Positions 1 through 9,814 are shown, numbered from the stretch's first letter. The stretch: DNA of 53,876 nucleotides from a bacterium (GCA_021790255.1 JAJYIE010000004.1:1-53876); one strand, 5' to 3'. A program made the numbers and translations. The notes: generated by a model not told the origin, from the letters alone.

Positions 1-77
1 TAAAATCACTTGGCAATTTTCTGCGTTTGTCTCAAATGTGTTTGATCTTTTTCATCAATAGCTACTTATTGTTCAGT

Positions 78-142
78 AATTTGTATAAATGTCATTCTTT
101 TTTCAGCTATGATCATATTGGTGCACCCATAACTAAGTTATG
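78..142 (+). promoter_or_regulatory. Unit-1 promoter/operator: AATTTGTATAAAT (78-90), -10 TATGAT (108-113), palindrome CATAACT-A-AGTTATG (128-142) overlapping the ATG
   Basis: The same three elements recur at 3500-3567, with identical spacing between the 13-mer and the -10. Confidence 0.65.
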
Positions 143-436
143 AAAACAATGCAAGCAAGACTTGAAAAAATAGAAGCTCAGTATAAACAACAAACATATA
201 CCAACGTTGATAGTGCAATGGTTCGGGTATTACGCATGATTATTGACGCATATAGTCAAAAGACATATATACCAAAAGAAGTAGATAAAATAACGCATGA
301 AGAATGGCAACTTGATTGTGAAAAGGAATTACGTTACCAACGCATACATTTTGGAGAACAAGCGGTTGAAGACAGGAAACAAATAAATGATGACTTTGAA
401 GCATATATTACAGAGGTTGGCGGATGGAAGGACTAA
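140..436 (+). CDS. Small hypothetical protein, 'WKD' family (paralog 1)
   Basis: 98-aa ORF with an N-terminal RLEKIE coil, a DKITHEEW motif shared with 3565..3825, and C-terminal GWKD. Confidence 0.75.
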   Translation: MKTMQARLEKIEAQYKQQTYTNVDSAMVRVLRMIIDAYSQKTYIPKEVDKITHEEWQLDCEKELRYQRIHFGEQAVEDRKQINDDFEAYITEVGGWKD

Positions 437-439
437 AGT

Positions 440-760
440 ATGACTATACAAACCAAACTTACAAAACTTGAGATGCAATTACAAGCAAAGTTTTCAGTAG
501 AAAGACCGAGTGAGCAACCAGTTATTCGGCTCTGGTCAGAGCTTATACGAGATGAGGTGCAAGAAGGATTTGGTATAAAAGCAGAGCCAATGCTTGTAGT
601 GCCTGATAATCTAAAAGTTAGGCATGTTGATTGGGAGTACTTTTATAACTCAATTCAGAAACGTAGAGTTGAATTTGGCGAAAAAATCTATAAAGAACAA
701 ATTGACTTTTGTAATGAAATAAAAACAGTGATTGATAGTGCTGAGGGATGGAAGGACTAA
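440..760 (+). CDS. Small hypothetical protein, 'WKD' family (paralog 2)
   Basis: 106-aa ORF starting MTIQTKLTKLE and ending EGWKD, 3 nt after paralog 1. Confidence 0.75.
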   Translation: MTIQTKLTKLEMQLQAKFSVERPSEQPVIRLWSELIRDEVQEGFGIKAEPMLVVPDNLKVRHVDWEYFYNSIQKRRVEFGEKIYKEQIDFCNEIKTVIDSAEGWKD

Positions 761-765
761 TAATC

Positions 766-1353
766 ATGCGGTGTATATTTATCAAGAGAAACAAAGAACA
801 ATGTAGGGCACATAAGATGCTTGACTCCACTTTCTGTTTTAGACACAATCCCAAGCACGTTAAAAAGGTAAAAGAGCTGTTACTCAATGAGACCGATATA
901 CAAGTAAAAGATACATTCAGAGCAGACCTCAAAAAAGACCAAGCAAGTACGATTACAATTAGTGGAGACTTAGACAAGCTCAAAGTGGAGAAAGAAAAGC
1001 ACAGCAAAGCAATTATGAGCTATGAACAATTCCTTGAACTATTTAACGACTTGCCTGATATTATAAGCAAAACGAAGTCTTTGAAAGAGAAAGATTATTT
1101 ACTTGGAAAAACCTACTTGAACTGCGTTGTAAAAGATAAGAAAGTCTTGTCCTGTCAATTAAATCCACCATTCAATAAGTTTGTGAAAAGTGGTGTTTTG
1201 ACATCTAGTCGGATTGCAGAAACCACACTTGAACTATATGATTTTATCATAAACAACTTAGACACGGTAGACAAATTTAACGAGGACGTCAGTTTATATT
1301 TACAGGGTAAAAAGTCTTTTCAGCAGTCACAGTACATGAACGTCATGCTATAA
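766..1353 (+). CDS. Chimeric ORF: Cys/His small-protein N-terminus fused in frame to the serine recombinase C-terminal region
   Basis: The N-terminus MRCIFIKRNKEQCRAH...CFRHNP matches 3832..4188. From LLLNETDIQVK to GVLTSSR it matches the recombinase C-terminus, followed by a 46-aa tail. Confidence 0.7.
   Translation: MRCIFIKRNKEQCRAHKMLDSTFCFRHNPKHVKKVKELLLNETDIQVKDTFRADLKKDQASTITISGDLDKLKVEKEKHSKAIMSYEQFLELFNDLPDIISKTKSLKEKDYLLGKTYLNCVVKDKKVLSCQLNPPFNKFVKSGVLTSSRIAETTLELYDFIINNLDTVDKFNEDVSLYLQGKKSFQQSQYMNVML
883..1212 (+). repeat. Direct repeat copy 1 (recombinase 3' end), ending in core TCTAGTCGG (attP-like junction)
   Basis: Hand alignment with 5531..5859 gives 39 differences in 330 nt (about 88% identity), mostly synonymous. 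Confidence 0.95.
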
Positions 1354-1360
1354 TAAAAAT

Positions 1361-1615
1361 ATGAGCGATAGAACTTTAATTCAAAAATTGAAGGCAGCCA
1401 TTGACTCGGAGAAAAATAGCAGTATCAAAAAGGATAATTTGACAGATGTGGCAAGTCAAATTAGCAATCAACCAAGCACCTCGCAGCCACAGAGCAGTAA
1501 TGCCAGCGATAACAGCAATAATCAACCTCAAAATCTTGGAAATAATCAAGTTGTTGGCGCAGATGGCACAGTTATTGACCTCAACATAGACCAACAAAAC
1601 ACCATTAAAAAGTAA
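1361..1615 (+). CDS. Hypothetical protein with Q/N/S-rich low-complexity linker
   Basis: 84-aa ORF 7 nt after the upstream stop; no recognisable motif. Confidence 0.55.
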   Translation: MSDRTLIQKLKAAIDSEKNSSIKKDNLTDVASQISNQPSTSQPQSSNASDNSNNQPQNLGNNQVVGADGTVIDLNIDQQNTIKK

Positions 1616-1650
1616 TACTTCATCAAGCTGTATTTTATTGAACTATATAG

Positions 1651-3474
1651 TTATTGATATCCTTGTGCTTGGGTGTGAAACATGTGAGCGTATTTGCCGG
1701 CTTTTTTCATTAGTTCTTCATGCGTACCCCTTTCAATAATTTGCCCATCATCAATTACAAAAATCTTATTGGCATTTCTAACGGTTGAAAATCGGTGAGA
1801 GACCAGAACTAATGTTTTGTCTTTGTACGCTTTTTCTAAATTATTAAATATTTCATACTCTGCTTCTGCATCAATGGCGCTTGTTGGCTCATCAAGAATA
1901 AGCAAAGGGGATGATTGATAAAAGGCTCTTGCAATTGCTAATTTTTGCCATTGACCAACAGATAATTCCTCACCATCCTCATATTCCCTGCCCAATATCT
2001 GGTCAAATTTTTTTGGTAGTTTTTCAATAAACTCATATGCACCTGCTTTTTTAGCTGCCTCTTTTATAAGCATTTCATCTTGTTTCGCTGGGTCACCAAG
2101 TACTATATTATCTCGGACAGTCAAGTAATAATGTACAAAATCTTGAAATAATGTACCCATATGCTCGTACCAGTTTGCAAGTTTTATCTCTTTTATATTT
2201 ATGTCATTTATCAGAATTTCGCCCTCAGTTACATCATAAAATCTACAAATGAGTTTAATTATTGTTGATTTACCTGCACCATTTACACCAACAAGAGCAG
2301 CGCTCTCGCCAGATTGCACAATGAAAGATACATTTTTTAATACTTTTTGACCATTTGGGTATTGAAAAGACACATTCTTAAATTCTATTTTTGGTGGATA
2401 AATCTTTTCAAAAATAACGGGATGCGCAGTCTCATTGATTAGTCTTGGTAGTTCTAAAACCTCAAAGTAATGGTCTATGTACAAGTTATGCTCATACATT
2501 TCACCAAAATTAGCAACAGCATTTGCAGCGCTTCCATCTAGTTGGTCAATCATATTGATTAGCAATGTAAAACTACCAATAGTGATTATTCCATTTAAAA
2601 CGTGGGGTAATTGTAGATATGCAATCACAAACAACACAATTGTTTCTAGGATTGGAGGGTACATTAGTTGGCGTAAATAATTATCTAATGGTTTCTTGTT
2701 AAGATTGAATAAATAATCTTGTACTTCTTTGAGCTTAGCAAGAAGCGTTTTTTGTGATTGAAAAATTCTCATTTCTCTTATCGCCTCAGGACTAGCAAGT
2801 AAATAGGTAAGATACCAAATTTTTCTCACCTGCGGTGCGCCCGACCCATAAATTGACCATTGAATTGTGCCATATTTTGCACGCAGGTATAGTCTTGGCA
2901 AGGTTACAATAGTAATTGTTACTGGTATCCACCATCCAAATGGAAGTAATATTATAAAAGCTGCAATATAACCAACAATACTACTGAAAAAGTAAGCAAA
3001 CTGACGTAAAAAATCAGGTGGTCGCCATGTTAGAGTATCACGAGTTTTTGATATAAGATTTTGTGTTTTTGGGTTTTCTAAGTGGGCAATATCTAATTGC
3101 GATAATTTATCATAAAAACGTCTATTTAATTCATTTTGAATTGTGTAACGAAAAAGATAGTCAAAATAAACAATATGAAGCCCCCACTGGACAATGCTTT
3201 CAGCAAGATTGAGTACATAGCGAGTAGCAAGGATAGCAATAACTACCAGAGGTACAGTAACAATACCAGAAGCCAAATGATTACCAAGTAAACTATCAAT
3301 GAGGTATTTCAGTGTTAAACTTGCAATCAAGGGCGCTAAAGCGCCTATCATTGCAGTAAAATAATAACCAAAGGTTACTCTTTTATCCATTTCCCACGAC
3401 AACAAGAGCATTTTTCTTAGATTGGTTAAAACATGTTTCAGTTGTTGCAATGAAGTTTGTACTTTCATACACAC
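1651..3474 (-). CDS. ABC exporter, fused permease/ATP-binding (MsbA/MdlB-like)
   Basis: N-terminal TM helices; Walker A GVNGAGKST; signature LSVGQWQK; Walker B LILDEP; H-loop SHR. Confidence 0.92.
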   Translation of the reverse strand: MCMKVQTSLQQLKHVLTNLRKMLLLSWEMDKRVTFGYYFTAMIGALAPLIASLTLKYLIDSLLGNHLASGIVTVPLVVIAILATRYVLNLAESIVQWGLHIVYFDYLFRYTIQNELNRRFYDKLSQLDIAHLENPKTQNLISKTRDTLTWRPPDFLRQFAYFFSSIVGYIAAFIILLPFGWWIPVTITIVTLPRLYLRAKYGTIQWSIYGSGAPQVRKIWYLTYLLASPEAIREMRIFQSQKTLLAKLKEVQDYLFNLNKKPLDNYLRQLMYPPILETIVLFVIAYLQLPHVLNGIITIGSFTLLINMIDQLDGSAANAVANFGEMYEHNLYIDHYFEVLELPRLINETAHPVIFEKIYPPKIEFKNVSFQYPNGQKVLKNVSFIVQSGESAALVGVNGAGKSTIIKLICRFYDVTEGEILINDINIKEIKLANWYEHMGTLFQDFVHYYLTVRDNIVLGDPAKQDEMLIKEAAKKAGAYEFIEKLPKKFDQILGREYEDGEELSVGQWQKLAIARAFYQSSPLLILDEPTSAIDAEAEYEIFNNLEKAYKDKTLVLVSHRFSTVRNANKIFVIDDGQIIERGTHEELMKKAGKYAHMFHTQAQGYQ

Positions 3475-3499
3475 AATTGTATCAGATTTTATTTGTCTA

Positions 3500-3567
3500 A
3501 ATTTGTATAAATAATCTCTTTTTGACCCCTATAATTAAATAGGGATACCCCCCATAACTAAGTTATG
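3500..3567 (+). promoter_or_regulatory. Unit-2 promoter/operator: AATTTGTATAAAT (3500-3512), -10 TATAAT (3530-3535), palindrome CATAACT-A-AGTTATG (3553-3567)
   Basis: The 13-mer and the 15-bp palindrome are exact repeats of those at 78-142. Confidence 0.65.
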
Positions 3568-3825
3568 ACATTGCAAAATAAAATCACAAACCTAGAAAAA
3601 TATGTTAGAGCAAGAACACCTCAGCCGAGGGATATTCTTACAAGAGTAACTCGCATTGTAATTGCTGTAGGCGAGTCACACAGTCCCGGCAGAACTCTTG
3701 AGCCGATAGACGAGATTGACAAAATTACCCACGCAGAGTGGTATGAGTTCACGAATAAACATCCAGACTGGAAAGACCCTTATTACATAACAGAATTTGA
3801 CGAAGCCTTGGCATGGAAAGACTAA
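3565..3825 (+). CDS. Small hypothetical protein, 'WKD' family (paralog 3)
   Basis: 86 aa; MTLQNKITNLEK..., DKITHAEW, ends AWKD. Confidence 0.75.
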   Translation: MTLQNKITNLEKYVRARTPQPRDILTRVTRIVIAVGESHSPGRTLEPIDEIDKITHAEWYEFTNKHPDWKDPYYITEFDEALAWKD

Positions 3826-3831
3826 TAAAGT

Positions 3832-4188
3832 ATGCAATGTAAATTTATAAGAAAAAACAAACAGCAATGCAAGGCGCATAGCATGAGAAGTACTAAACTT
3901 TGCTTCAGGCACAGCCCTGACCACGCTAAACAAGCCTTAAAAGCCTCGCAAGCCGGCGGGACAAACAGAAGCCCGTCTGTTGCCTTTCAAGAAGAAATTA
4001 CTCTCAATAATACAAGAGATATCCAAAAACTGATAGGTAAGGTCATCAATGGTGTTTGGCAAGGAAAAGTACCAATCAAAGTTGGCTCAACCGTTGGTTT
4101 TCTTACTCGTTGCTGGCTTGATGCCTATGAGAAATCAGAGCTTGAAAGACGAGTTGAAGAACTTGAGAAGAAAATAACAGCATTGTAA
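3832..4188 (+). CDS. Small protein with C-x9-C-x10-C-x2-H putative Zn motif and C-terminal coiled coil
   Basis: 118 aa; the Cys/His pattern is conserved in the 766 copy; ends ELERRVEELEKK. Confidence 0.7.
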   Translation: MQCKFIRKNKQQCKAHSMRSTKLCFRHSPDHAKQALKASQAGGTNRSPSVAFQEEITLNNTRDIQKLIGKVINGVWQGKVPIKVGSTVGFLTRCWLDAYEKSELERRVEELEKKITAL

Positions 4189-4228
4189 TTATACTGCCTT
4201 GAGCTTTCTTAACCTGTATAATCAAAGC

Positions 4229-5874
4229 ATGCAATATACAACACAAGATTTAGTTGGCTTCCTCAAAACTCTTAACACTGCGGATGATGAAAAAGATAAT
4301 GCAACAAGTATCAAATACGTGATTTATGCCAGAAAATCCACAGAAAGTGAAGAACGACAGGTACGTTCACTTGGCGACCAAGTAACAGAGTGCAGAAAAA
4401 TAGTACAAGACAGAGAGCTACAGGTAATTTCAACCCCTATTACTGAGTCAGAAAGTGCGAAAGAGCCAGATATTAGACCAAGATTTAGGCAGATGATTGA
4501 CGACATAAAAGGTGGCAAATACGGTGGCATTATTGCGTGGCACCCGGACAGACTTGCACGCAATATGAAAGATGCAGGTGAAATTATTGACCTCTTGGAT
4601 AAAAAAATTATCAAAGACTTACAGTTTGTGAGCTTCACTTTCCAAAACAATACCGCAGGCAAAATGCTTTTAGGAATAGCATTTGTTTTGTCAAAACAGT
4701 ATTCAGACCAGCTAAGCGATAATGTGCTTCGTGGTAATAGGAGAAGCATTGAGGAAGGAAAATATATCAATAAAACTAAGCACGGTTATTTCAAAGACGT
4801 AAACCAATACTTACGACCAGACGGAGATAATTTCTTACTCATAAAACAGGCATGGAAAATGAGACTTGAGAATAAACAGCTTGAGGAAATTGCATCGTTT
4901 CTCAATACCAATCACTACAGCAGACCGACAAGCGTTGGTGGTAACACCCACGAGCAATACACCATAGACGTGAAGCGTGTATCAGAGATTTTACGTGACT
5001 CTATTTACTGTGGTGTCTTGTTATTTGGGGAAAAGGAGAAAAAGATAGTTGATTTGACACAGATATATGATTTTATACCAATGGTTACAGTTGATGAGTT
5101 TCTCAAAATAAATAAAATCACCAGCATTGATAAGTTTTTCAAACAGCGTTTCAAAGTGGAAAAAGAGGGAAGCATAAGAGCTGATTTATTGCGGGGCAAA
5201 GTCATTTGTGGCTATTGTAACCACCCAATGGTATCTGCAATCTCAAACAAAATGAATAAAAAAGGACTAACACACTATTACAACTATCGCTGTGATAATA
5301 AAAGCTGTAAAGCAAAGGCAAAGGCAATAAGAGCGCATGTTGTAGTGGATTACTGTATTGATTTTCTGCGACAACACAAATTTAACACGAGGGATGTCTA
5401 CGACCATTATGTAGCAGAAATGAAACGTGTTATTGCAAACCAAGAGCAAATACTTGAGACACAACGGCATACACTCACAAAAGCAAAAATTGATACTGAA
5501 GACAAAGTAGATAAAATAAAAGACTTGCTGCTCAATGAGACAGATATACAAGTAAAGACACATTCAGAGCAGACCTCAAAAAAGACCAAGCAAGCATTGT
5601 TACAATCAGTGAGGACTTGGACAAGCTAAAAGAAGAAAAAGAAAAGCACAAAAAGGCAATCTTGAGCTACGAGCAATTCCTTGAACTGTTTAACGATTTG
5701 CCCGATATAATAAGCAAAACCAAGAGTTTAAAAGAAAAAGATTATTTACTTGGAAAAATATACTTGAACTGCGTTATAAAAGATAAGAAAGTATTGTCCT
5801 GTCAATTAAATCCACCATTCAACAAGTTTGTGAAACATGGTGTTTTGACGTCTAGTCGGGGTGGGGAGAATTGA
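4229..5874 (+). CDS. Large serine recombinase (resolvase + recombinase + Zn-ribbon + coiled coil), with a 1-nt frameshift at about 5554-5556
   Basis: YARKST catalytic motif, AWHPDRLARN, CGYC...YRCDNKSC. Restoring one A (as in copy 906-909) joins ORFs 4199..5629 and 5617..5874 into about 548 aa. Confidence 0.9.
5531..5859 (+). repeat. Direct repeat copy 2, ending in core TCTAGTCGG at the tRNA 3' end (att junction)
   Basis: See copy 1; the last 4 nt overlap the tRNA discriminator and acceptor stem. Confidence 0.95.
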
Positions 5875-5927
5875 ACTCCCTACATCCGGACCCCCAGCCC
5901 GGCGTTCTGCCGATGAACTACACCCCG
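5856..5927 (-). tRNA. tRNA-Pro(GGG), CCA not encoded
   Basis: Cloverleaf: acceptor CGGGGTG/CACCCCG, D-stem GTTC/GAAC, anticodon stem CCGGG/TCCGG with loop CTGGGGG, T-arm GGGAG-TTCAATT-CTCCC. Confidence 0.95.
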
Positions 5928-7396: not shown

Positions 7397-9814
7397 CTAA
7401 TCTCTGCTTTTTTGCTCTTGCTCATACACAGACAGTGTTGTCTTAATAACTGAGTCGGGGTTTAAAGACATGCTTTCTATTCCCGCTTTTACCAGAAACT
7501 GGGCAAAGTCCGGATAATCAGAAGGCGCTTGACCACATATGCCGATATATTTCCCTTTTGCTTTGCATTTTTTGATCACTTCCGAAATTAGTGTTTTGAC
7601 TGCCTCGTCTTCTTCATTACTAATCCCGCGGATCCGCTCATTACCGTCCCGGTCAATACCTAAAGTCAGCTGAGTTAAGTCATTTGAGCCGATACTCATC
7701 CCGTCATAAACTTCCAAAAACTCATCGGCTAAAATAACATTGGCGGGGATTTCACACATCACATATATATGAAAATCATCTTCCCTCTTCAGGCCGTTTT
7801 TCTCAATCAGGTCAACCACTTTCCGGCCTTCTTCCACAGTCCGGCAAAACGGCACCATCACCACGACATTTTTAAGCCCCATTTCGTCACGGACTTTTTT
7901 CATTGCTTTAAGTTCCAAAACAAAAGCCTCGGCAAATTCCGGATGATAATAACGGGAAGCGCCCCGCCAACCAATCATTGGATTTTCTTCTTTCGGTTCG
8001 TAGATATCACCGCCGATTAAAGTCTTGTATTCATTAGTTTTAAAATCCGAAAAGCGGACGATAACTTTTTTGGGATAAAAAGCGGCACCGATTTTAGCAA
8101 TTCCGTAAGCCAGTTTATCCACATAAAATTGTACCTTATCCGGATAACCGAAAGTCCGCTCGTCAACCTGCTTTTTAACCGCCTGCGGTAAAGTCTTATA
8201 GTTTATTAAGGCATTGGGGTGAATACCGATATCCGAGGCGATAATAAACTCTTCCCGAGCCAACCCCACACCGCTGCTGGGCAGAAAAGACTTCTCAAAA
8301 GCTGTTTCCGGAGTTGCGATATTGATCATGATTTTAGTTTTCGGCTTGGGAAACTTTTCGATATCGTGTTCTTCAATTTTAAACTTCAGCAGGCCTTCAT
8401 ATACAATGCCGTCGCTGCCGGTAGTATCAACGGTTATTTTATCGCCGGTGGAAATTTTCTCAGTTGCCTCCTCTGAGCCGACAATACAGGGAATGCCCAG
8501 CTCACGTGAAACGATGGCGGCATGAGAAGTCCTTCCGCCCTTATCAGTGACGATGGCCGCGGCAATTTTCATAATCGGCTCCCAGTCCGGGTCAGTCATC
8601 TCCGTAACCAAAATCTCCCCGGCTTTAAAGGTTTTAATTTCAGACGGATCCATGATTACCCGAGCTACACCATTGGCAATTTTGCTGCCGACAGATGCCC
8701 CCCGGACAATTTCCCTGCCCGACTGCTGCAAAACATATTCATGAATCTTGGAAAAATCCCGCCCGGCCTGAACAGTTTCCGGGCGAGCTTGGACCATATA
8801 AAGTTCTCCGCTTTTACCATCCTTGGCCCACTCCGTATCCATTGGTGTCCACTTACCGTTTTTCTCGCTGTAATGGCTTTCAATTTCCACCCCCCAGGAA
8901 GCAAGTTTCAATATTTCATCATCTGATAAAACAAAAGTTTCTCGTTCTTTCTCGGAAGTAGAGACAATTTTGGTGGGGGTTTTATCAGAGTAAACCATTT
9001 TCTGGTTTTTTACTCCCAGTTTCTTGCTAATAATCGGCCGGAAATTTTCAACTCCCAAATTCTTTTTAAAAACCAAGAACTCATCCGGGGTAACCTCACC
9101 CTGCACTATCATCTCCCCCAACCCCCATGAACCGTTAATGATTACCACATCGCGAAAACCTGTTTCCGTATCCAAGGTAAACATAACCCCTGAGCAGCCC
9201 AGATCAGAACGAACCATTTTTTGAACTCCCACAGAAAGGGCAACTTCAAAATGGTCAAAACCCTTATCTACCCGGTAAGAGATTGCCCGGTCGGTAAACA
9301 GTGAAGCCATGGCTTTTTTGACCGCTTTTAAAATCTCTCTGCTGCCGCGGATATTAAGATATGTTTCCATCTCTCCGGCGAATGATGCTCCGGGCAAATC
9401 CTCCGCGGTGGCCGAAGAACGGACAGCAAAATCCGCCCCCTGCCTATATTTTTTCTCTGCCTTTTTGTGTGCTTCTGTAATTGCCTTCTCCAGTTCAAAC
9501 GGGAATTTTGTTTCGGATATTTTCTGGCGGACTAGCCTACCTTTTCTGGCTAAATCATCAAGGTTGCGGGTATTAAGCCCGTCAAGAATTTTCCTAATTT
9601 CTTCTGCCAAACCCGTTTTATCCAGGAAATAGCGGTAAGCGGAAGCGGTTATAACATAGCCTGAGGGTATATTTACACCTTTAGGGGAAAGTTTCTGGAT
9701 CATCTCCCCCAGAGAAGCATTTTTTCCACCCACTTCGCCCACATCATCAATTCCGACTTCTTCAAAATGGCGGATAAACGAATCTACCACGGTGGGGAAA
9801 GGATCATACTGCAT
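7397..9814 (-). CDS. ppsA: Phosphoenolpyruvate synthase (pyruvate, water dikinase)
   Basis: VGGKNASLGEM, AVRSSATAEDLP, GGRTSHAAIVSRELG, SIGSNDLTQ, GICGQAPSD. Confidence 0.97.
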   Translation of the reverse strand: MQYDPFPTVVDSFIRHFEEVGIDDVGEVGGKNASLGEMIQKLSPKGVNIPSGYVITASAYRYFLDKTGLAEEIRKILDGLNTRNLDDLARKGRLVRQKISETKFPFELEKAITEAHKKAEKKYRQGADFAVRSSATAEDLPGASFAGEMETYLNIRGSREILKAVKKAMASLFTDRAISYRVDKGFDHFEVALSVGVQKMVRSDLGCSGVMFTLDTETGFRDVVIINGSWGLGEMIVQGEVTPDEFLVFKKNLGVENFRPIISKKLGVKNQKMVYSDKTPTKIVSTSEKERETFVLSDDEILKLASWGVEIESHYSEKNGKWTPMDTEWAKDGKSGELYMVQARPETVQAGRDFSKIHEYVLQQSGREIVRGASVGSKIANGVARVIMDPSEIKTFKAGEILVTEMTDPDWEPIMKIAAAIVTDKGGRTSHAAIVSRELGIPCIVGSEEATEKISTGDKITVDTTGSDGIVYEGLLKFKIEEHDIEKFPKPKTKIMINIATPETAFEKSFLPSSGVGLAREEFIIASDIGIHPNALINYKTLPQAVKKQVDERTFGYPDKVQFYVDKLAYGIAKIGAAFYPKKVIVRFSDFKTNEYKTLIGGDIYEPKEENPMIGWRGASRYYHPEFAEAFVLELKAMKKVRDEMGLKNVVVMVPFCRTVEEGRKVVDLIEKNGLKREDDFHIYVMCEIPANVILADEFLEVYDGMSIGSNDLTQLTLGIDRDGNERIRGISNEEDEAVKTLISEVIKKCKAKGKYIGICGQAPSDYPDFAQFLVKAGIESMSLNPDSVIKTTLSVYEQEQKSRD

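Follow-up and report, generated by a model that had tools for sequence, protein, structure and literature searches.

Why should the 3' end of a recombinase gene be present twice near one end of a bacterial DNA stretch, once running into a tRNA gene and once reading on into a longer C-terminus? The question is raised by GCA_021790255.1 JAJYIE010000004.1:1-53876, a stretch of 53,876 nt that we call, at its full length, the window. We consider it very probable that positions 1-5859 of the window are a low-GC island in which two related small integrative elements, unit A on the left and unit B next to the tRNA, lie head to tail at the 3' end of tRNA-Pro(GGG), and that the recombinase of such elements carries its attachment site in its own last codons. 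An initial annotation had proposed a tandem array at tRNA-Pro with the attachment site inside the recombinase 3' end, and in this it was right. The GC content of the island is 0.34-0.39, against 0.40-0.52, mostly 0.43-0.50, in the host DNA to the right. Below, attP and attB denote the attachment sites of element and host, and attL and attR those at the two ends of an integrated element.

The repeat, its core and the tRNA-Pro junction

A repeat search and a MAFFT alignment pair positions 869-1212 with 5517-5859 at 87.5-88% identity (blastn E = 1.3e-121). The duplicated recombinase end had been described as 883-1212 and 5531-5859 with about 88% nucleotide identity; it is there, and slightly longer. 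Both copies close with TCTAGTCGG (1204-1212 and 5851-5859), and the sequences part at the very next base. The only tRNA that ARAGORN predicts in the window is a minus-strand tRNA-Pro(GGG) (5855-5927), so that the shared core supplies its discriminator and the last three bases of its acceptor stem; together with the alignment, this agrees with the proposal that the copies diverge exactly after a core at the tRNA. From LLLNETD to SSR the two copies differ by the 9 amino acids counted before, or in 11 of 115 codons once VKE/IKD is included. The reading frames are also as described: at the tRNA the frame reads ...GVLTSSRGGEN and stops, and the same frame from 1213 continues for 46 residues as IAETTLELYDFIINNLDTVDKFNEDVSLYLQGKKSFQQSQYMNVML before its stop (IAETTLELYDF...MNVML).

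The extent of the core needs correction. A related locus, L092, has an attL with the window's own tail arm and a host left arm (...AAAAATA-AGTCGG-ATTGCAG...), which limits the core shared by the window to AGTCGG, about 6 nt. Instead of the 9 nt proposed initially, we therefore prefer a core of about 6 nt (TAGTCG), antisense of the tRNA 3' terminus; the 9-nt stretch is what two related recombinase ends happen to share. The reading of 1204-1212 as an internal attP-type junction is upheld, since the recombinase end of unit A is joined there to the tail arm of unit B.

Do other loci have sites of this kind? Where both ends are available, the attL/attR cores are 6-7 nt long (ATGGCGG, TTGTCG, ATGGTGC, GTGGGC, TGGTCG, TGGTGG, TGTCGG), and each is the antisense of the target tRNA's last acceptor bases, discriminator and CCA. 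The motif YGAAC lies 12-13 nt past the core on the tRNA arm, where it belongs to T-loop and T-stem, and 17-18 nt past it on the tail arm. This holds in 10 of 10 pairs, including the window (TTGAAC at 5871-5876 and 1229-1234, the latter within the first ~25 bp of the tail, which form the P' half-site) and the tandem locus L005. In serine integrases, the motif bound by the zinc-ribbon domain is shifted 5 bp outward in attP compared with attB (Rutherford et al., PMC3783163), and the constant 5-bp shift of YGAAC matches this signature. No mirror YGAAC was seen by eye in the recombinase-side and host-side arms. The attachment sites, judged from their sequences, look strongly asymmetric; with no mirror motif in the host-side attL arms, the tRNA half-site may dominate recognition, and the asymmetry may be relevant to the way in which tandem arrays arise. 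In the attL of L008, L011, L012, L013, L015, L017, L027, L061 and L092, the host-side (B) arms are rich in A and T. Integration at the attL of L092 has a further effect: about 340 nt from the contig start, on the minus strand, the final codons of an open reading frame (ORF) for a host membrane protein are changed as well, this ORF overlapping the stretch downstream of the tRNA.

Two C-terminal forms of one recombinase family

The recombinase of unit B is broken. Copy B of the repeat is 1 nt shorter than copy A (AAA at 5554-5556 versus AAAA at 905-908), and through this deletion the catalytic part, in frame 2, and the C-terminal segment, in frame 1, no longer share a reading frame. The ORF that opens with the ATG at 4229 stops, as assembled, at 5629 (...TWTS) and encodes 466 aa without the last ~105 residues or the SSRGGEN end; an identical 466-aa product is on record on 2 contigs. 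If repaired, the protein has 548 aa and ends ...SSRGGEN. We considered programmed frameshifting at 5554 and rejected it: there is no slippery heptamer, all homologues are in frame, and ordinary decay occurs elsewhere (L024, L039). In those two loci the recombinase ORFs end 130-220 nt before the adjacent tRNA, as expected of frameshifted copies, and decay of the window's kind appears to be common in the family.

The repaired protein has the catalytic domain of serine recombinases (PF00239, Resolvase, E = 9e-21, residues 31-179), with R35 and S37 invariant in 40 homologues, as well as the Recombinase and zinc-ribbon domains (PF07508 and PF13408). In an AlphaFold2 (AF2) model of a natural long form, P0097, with a mean predicted local distance difference test score (pLDDT) of 83.8, coiled-coil helices span residues 379-465, and the best Foldseek matches are the serine integrase-DNA complexes 9y66 and 9dxf, the phiC31 integrase 9rah and the large serine recombinase-DNA complex 4kis.

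A protein search gave 1,346 homologues at E <= 1e-10, nearly all of the named ones from Patescibacteria and most of them 540-560 aa long. Their ends fall into two classes: some close with ...SSRGGGN, ...SSRGAGN, ...SGGDGGS or similar, and others read on into strings such as ...GERTRTS..., which are translated antisense tRNA. A survey of 80 loci, with one genome per species, yielded 55 full-length ORFs, and 41 of them end in or abut the antisense of a tRNA 3' end, with 21 isoacceptors represented. The reading phase is the same in 33 of these 41; ARAGORN ends vary by a base or by CCA, which accounts for some of the 8 out-of-phase cases. In the common phase, the glycine codon GGT corresponds to the antisense of CC together with a discriminator A, and a frequent stop is the TGA inside the T-loop TTGAAC.

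Where, then, is the long form found? Tails like that of the window occur in three of the 40 top-ranked homologues retrieved. P0097 is encoded on a 4,929-nt contig, L001, whose ends overlap exactly by 30 nt and which thus represents a 4,899-bp circle without a tRNA. P0071 is encoded on two contigs from two samples, L002 and L003, each a circular permutation of the same 4,626-bp molecule. P0085 comes from L005, a contig of a Berkelbacteria metagenome-assembled genome with two units in tandem upstream of tRNA-Pro(TGG); of its two recombinases, the distal one continues into the proximal unit's tail and the proximal one through the tRNA. The tandem array L050 contains another long form, at a distance of 5 kb upstream from a tRNA-Pro. 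Long forms whose tail is homologous are seen on circular contigs of ~4.6-4.9 kb or at tandem junctions only. Further left, L005 has a third junction (7694-7743) made of 28 nt of recombinase end and an intact tail, that is, a complete attP-like site without its gene.

The far ends of integrated elements complete the picture. A tail profile finds orphan tails in about 10 loci, on the recombinase strand and 2-8 kb upstream of tRNA-abutting recombinases, which is where attL is expected; they mark the far (attL) end of integrated elements. Hence the circles carry the long form, attR a stub encoded by the tRNA, and attL an orphan tail. The initial annotation had advised looking for two recurrent C-terminal forms among serine recombinases of the candidate phyla radiation (CPR) next to tRNAs, and they do recur. 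It had also stated that a tail present in all homologues regardless of context would speak against its proposal; the tail is instead kept on circles and at tandem junctions and lost at tRNAs. The alternation it envisaged between a circular form with a 46-aa tail and an integrated form with a 4-aa tail holds across the family as a ~46-aa tail and a tRNA-encoded stub; the window's own integrated copy, being frameshifted, does not make the enzyme with the 4-aa tail as assembled. A phage identity of the elements was considered and rejected: only 2 full-length relatives are present in IMG/VR, and virion genes are absent.

Comparison between loci shows the attP in the last codons, the long form in the circle, the transfer of the tail to attL on integration, with a gene left behind whose last residues derive from the tRNA, and the restoration of the long frame by a second insertion. 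The following cycle is very probable. Each element is mobilised by a large serine recombinase with attP inside its own last codons, and crossover takes place within ~6 nt that are antisense to the very end of the tRNA, from the last acceptor bases and the discriminator to the CCA position; here they read TAGTCG. In the free circle, the gene reads through attP into a conserved helical tail of ~46 residues. After integration, the tail finds itself at attL, and the gene enters the antisense tRNA and stops within a few residues, usually at the TGA in TTGAAC. When a second element inserts at the tRNA-proximal junction, its tail arm comes to lie behind the resident recombinase end and the long frame is recreated, as at 1204-1212.

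What remains of this cycle in the window? Unit B, at 4,647 bp, matches the circles of the family in size, and it was delimited correctly at the outset as 1213-5859. That it is excisable is the part of the claim that finds no support for the present day. The recombinase of unit B is frameshifted, unit A lacks the catalytic domain, and no other member of the family was found in the 53.9-kb window; the island is thus probably immobile by its own means. It is most likely a fossil array that could be moved only with a recombinase supplied in trans. Excision of unit B alone would, moreover, need an attP-type site to recombine with attR, and this is not a canonical pairing for serine integrases.

Copy A, for its part, has no recombinase attached: it follows, in one continuous frame, the opening ~35 codons of a Cys-rich gene that is a paralogue of the one at 3832-4188. 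The closest intact homologue, P0001, is encoded on L087, positions 1-338 of which match window 530-868 (82%) and positions 1923-2275 match window 860-1212 (92.6%). Taken together, the two matches identify unit A as a P0001-like element minus 1.58 kb, including the whole catalytic region. We infer that unit A is older and decayed, and that unit B is newer and nearer to the tRNA. At its left end, unit A has a gene on the minus strand (window 1-55) that is cut off by the contig end. An overlapping contig (ENA ERZ27233565 k141_1861140, L090; 53,976 nt) extends the island leftwards by only 85 nt, all inside this minus-strand gene, and attL was not found in it. A search of metagenome contigs with a back-translated tail pattern for a circle of the window lineage returned three loci, all of attL type and none a circle.

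The tail and the alternative explanations

A profile of the last ~85 residues matches 117 representatives among 1.84 billion proteins, and in ~25 cases the match covers the tail as well. Short ORFs composed of a C-terminal recombinase fragment followed by the tail, as in unit A, are frequent among the latter, with the reservation that tail-bearing fragments in a protein library may be partial genes at contig ends. Some 30 divergent tails can be aligned. They are 42-46 aa long, have an invariant LEL five residues past the junction, follow the pattern [FY]xxIxxNx[DE]x[VIL]xx[FW]Nxx[LVM]xx[FY]L and end in hydrophobic-x-L/F/Y. The window tail has a near-twin at an attL in L092. Over the first 27 nt the two have a single difference; among codons 10-46, 15 are synonymous-only and 4 amino acid-changing, and the ratio of nonsynonymous to synonymous substitution rates (dN/dS) is ~0.02, with dS near saturation. 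Against the tail of L093, dN/dS is 0.145. By these measures, the tail evolves as coding sequence under purifying selection. AF2 predicts it in P0097 as two helices, 541-548 and 550-565.

Several suggestions can be made about the role of such a tail. We infer that it modulates the enzyme, so that episomal and chromosomal isoforms would differ in activity, direction or stability; the switch of directionality or stability put forward initially would be of this kind. By analogy with IntP and IntX of phage Mx8, the long form is most likely the one proficient in integration, and the stub form would be attenuated or dependent on a partner. A more specific possibility, which we find rather doubtful, is that the tail is a built-in determinant of directionality that makes a separate directionality factor unnecessary. 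The episomal long form would then carry out only attP x attB recombination, and the chromosomal stub, with its coiled-coil autoinhibition relaxed, would carry out attL x attR. If correct, the family would also offer natural serine integrases that read the universally conserved T-loop and 3' end of a tRNA as attB.

A number of points weigh against our interpretation of the island and of the tail. Canonical serine integrases do not recombine attP with attR or attL (PMC3783163), hence textbook rules do not account for the formation of an array. As to the circular contigs, they could in principle result from tandem repeats that collapsed in assembly. The island itself is known from assembled contigs, with its attL lying beyond the left contig end, and with a frameshifted recombinase and a deleted unit A it has no sign of current activity. 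As to the tail, AF2 places it after a low-confidence linker (532-539) and gives it a pLDDT of 64-82; its first ~8 codons are bound by the att half-site, and a part of the conservation is accordingly at the level of DNA.

The first of these points leads to one alternative, namely that the array arose by homologous recombination or from a hetero-dimeric circle, and that in this genome 1204-1212 has never served as a recombination site. In its favour, the two recombinase ends are almost the same over their final 45 nt, a stretch that could have allowed homologous exchange. The junction, however, lies precisely at the core, as do the two junctions of L005 and the true attL sites, and the units belong to different lineages with different cargo, unlike a dimer of one element. 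We regard this origin as improbable.

Another alternative concerns the tail only. It could be a degradation or instability tag, such that the episomal long form is short-lived and gives a burst of integration, and the integrated stub is stable. Nearly all tails end with the hydrophobic-x-L/F/Y-COOH motif, AF2 predicts a flexible linker ahead of them, and there is a precedent in mycobacteriophages, where in integration-dependent immunity a C-terminal tag is removed by integration (PMC3694055). Yet a few residues suffice for a degron, and here ~40 are conserved with helical periodicity, which makes a mere tag unlikely in our opinion.

The 46-codon extension might also have no function as protein and be an accidental read-through, its conservation due only to what the attP half-site requires of the DNA. 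The invariant LEL codons (CTT GAA CTN) do coincide with the YGAAC motif 17-18 nt from the core, so that two constraints, one on the protein and one on the half-site, act on the beginning of the tail; the near identity of the first 27 nt with L092 fits the same idea. But conservation runs ~110 nt past any half-site of a serine integrase, and the excess of synonymous changes over codons 10-46 and the dN/dS against L093 are those of a protein. Length, amphipathic pattern and C-terminal motif are kept among divergent tails, the orphan tails at attL stay open, and two helices are predicted. An accidental read-through is very unlikely on these grounds.

That the recombinase end was simply copied within the chromosome, 883-1212 being unrelated to site-specific recombination, can hardly be true at all: just two copies are visible and the island's left end is missing, but the copies differ at 43 of 345 nt (24 codons synonymous-only, 11 amino acid-changing; dS 0.60, dN/dS 0.10) and hence diverged as working genes, copy A is nearer to L087 from another metagenome (92.6%) than to copy B (87.5%), the units have further modules in common (an 18-nt palindrome repeat at 126-143 and 3551-3568, WKD ORFs and a Cys-rich ORF), and the break falls exactly at the tRNA 3' end, with the same layout in L005 and L050. 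By this comparison, units A and B are two independent elements and not an in-situ duplication.

Relation to known systems and contents of the units

An attachment site within a coding sequence has precedents, all of them with tyrosine recombinases. Phage Mx8, like the elements described here, targets the 3' end of a tRNA gene. Its attP lies inside int, and integration makes a recombinant gene with a new 3' end that encodes a prophage-specific isoform (PMC6070905). As an integrase ORF with an internal attP whose 3' end is replaced on integration, this is the closest precedent. Mx8 Int is, however, a tyrosine recombinase, whereas the family of the window consists of large serine recombinases, with another chemistry and another logic of directionality; Pfam finds only serine recombinase domains in the window recombinase. 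Mx8 is a phage of ~50 kb, whereas our elements have 3.5-8.5 kb and no virion or replication genes, and the two are not related in sequence. In SSV-type integrases of archaeal viruses (SSV1), which are tyrosine recombinases as well, attP is also inside int, the target is a tRNA gene and int is altered by integration. There the gene is split into two large parts; our elements, in contrast, exchange only a C-terminal tail. In the mycobacteriophages BPs, Brujita and their relatives, attP lies inside the repressor gene and integration removes a short C-terminal degradation tag (PMC3694055). The resemblance is in the position of attP within a coding sequence and in the loss of a C-terminal segment. 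The differences are that the gene cut in the window is the recombinase, that a tyrosine integrase acts in the phages, and that no repressor was identified in the window by Pfam.

With canonical large serine integrases (the Listeria innocua LI integrase, which recombines the att sites of phage A118; phiC31; Bxb1; SPbeta) the family shares the Resolvase and Recombinase domains and a zinc ribbon with coiled coil, and it gives the Foldseek matches named above. Its att sites are likewise short, and the motif for the zinc-ribbon domain is placed 5 bp closer to the crossover in attB than in attP. For the canonical enzymes an attP inside the integrase ORF is not reported, and the protein is left unchanged by integration. 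The family differs in this respect, in that it inserts at many different tRNAs, at the 3' end in each case and with the T-loop for recognition, and in having an extra C-terminal module of ~45 aa that is present only in the episomal or tandem state.

A comparable layout is seen in tycheposons, small cargo elements that integrate at tRNA genes, leave tandem junctions and remnants and build islands; large serine recombinases are used by a minority of them (bioRxiv 10.1101/2020.12.28.424599). Like tycheposons, our elements insert at the 3' ends of tRNA genes, form tandem units, leave remnants and carry variable cargo, as seen in the two units of the window, the three junctions of L005 and the array of L050. 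Tycheposons differ in that their hosts are Prochlorococcus, that they have mostly tyrosine recombinases and in many cases replication modules, and that an intragenic attP with C-terminal exchange is not described for them. Within the limited literature searched, we found no description of a serine integrase with an intragenic attP and an exchangeable C-terminal module, or of such elements in Patescibacteria. An intragenic attP that alters the protein is thus already known with tyrosine recombinases (Mx8, mycobacteriophages, SSV-type), and the serine version appears to be new.

Why might this matter? Serine integrases are valued since a separate factor sets their direction, and if integration does rewrite the C-terminus of the enzyme, this would be a new coupling of the state of the DNA to the isoform of the protein. 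Intact family members and sites of ~50 bp are now defined. For genome engineering, it is of interest that the 3' end and T-loop seem to serve these enzymes as a recognition site in many different tRNA genes, since such sites are present in every genome. Patescibacteria have tiny genomes with few recognised mobile elements. The family looks like a major undescribed route by which cargo, for example transporters, accumulates beside their tRNA genes, and it is nearly absent from viral collections. For annotation, the layout explains many short "hypothetical" ORFs and the seemingly variable C-termini of recombinases.

The features of the island are collected in Table 1.

Table 1. Features of the two units and of the tRNA-Pro junction (positions are those of the window)
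Feature	Position	Strand	Basis or remark
Unit A, P0001/L087-like remnant without the recombinase catalytic region, running off the left contig end	1-1212	+	L087 matches; GC 0.35-0.37, against 0.44-0.50 in host DNA
Repeat CCCATAACTAAGTTATGA including palindrome CATAACTAAGTTATG over a start codon	3551-3568; second copy 126-143		Family D15, 100% identical
Two small paralogous ORFs ending GWKD	140-436, 440-760	+	ORF calls; paralogue at 3565-3825
Fusion ORF: Cys-rich N-terminus (766-~868), last ~115 codons of recombinase A (860-1212), 46-codon tail (1213-1350)	766-1353	+	Gene also called in L090
Shared core at the attP-type junction of units A and B	1204-1212	+	Crossover region TAGTCG, 1206-1211
Unit B, complete element, 4,647 bp	1213-5859	+	Bounded by attP-type junction and attR
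Tail-coding segment, 46 codons and stop	1213-1353	+	Tail profile E = 1.3e-16
ORF84, small Asn/Gln/Ser-rich protein directly after the tail	1361-1615	+	Homologues in the same position in L092, L093
Fused ABC transporter (membrane domain and ATPase), exporter-type, main cargo	1651-3474	-	Pfam ABC_tran E = 7e-32
Small ORF ending AWKD, third WKD paralogue	3565-3825	+	ORF calls
Cys-rich protein (CX9CX10CXXH), 5' of the recombinase	3832-4188	+	Homologues in L087, L005, L020
Large serine recombinase gene of unit B, broken	4229-5874	+	Pfam Resolvase, Recombinase, Zn_ribbon_recom
Shared core at attR, joint of recombinase end and tRNA	5851-5859	+	Alignment
tRNA-Pro(GGG), the B' half-site	5855-5927	-	ARAGORN; TTGAAC (T-loop and T-stem) at 5871-5876

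The genes of unit B follow each other in the order tail, ORF84, ABC transporter, WKD ORF, Cys-rich ORF and recombinase. Upstream of the recombinase, homologues of the Cys-rich protein are present in L087 (209-592), L005 (9450-9956 and 13235-13741) and L020 (7301-7702); the protein has no Pfam match, and a coiled-coil-like C-terminus follows its CX9CX10CXXH motif. It is a candidate accessory or directionality factor, as far as its sequence can suggest. We considered whether it might be the universal partner of the recombinase and rejected the idea: only some lineages keep it, it is replaced by a helix-turn-helix-like protein in the circle L001, and it cannot, therefore, be counted as a core component.

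The slot after the tail could be another candidate place for a directionality factor, given its syntenic position. An ORF of the ORF84 type always follows the tail in the window lineage (L092, L093); the same slot holds unrelated small ORFs in L001 (41 aa), L002 (46 aa) and L005 (69 aa).

The WKD ORFs are three paralogues ending GWKD or AWKD, two of them in tandem in unit A, and none of the three has a Pfam match. The 18-nt repeat, in which CATAACTAAGTTATG is a perfect palindrome, covers the start codon of each unit's first small ORF, and is likely to be an operator or another regulatory site for the forward operon of the element. In L093, beside the orphan tail, positions 3145-5409 contain a small serine recombinase (189 aa), a glyoxalase-like gene and a PIN toxin-antitoxin pair; this island seems to collect other mobile or defence-type genes.

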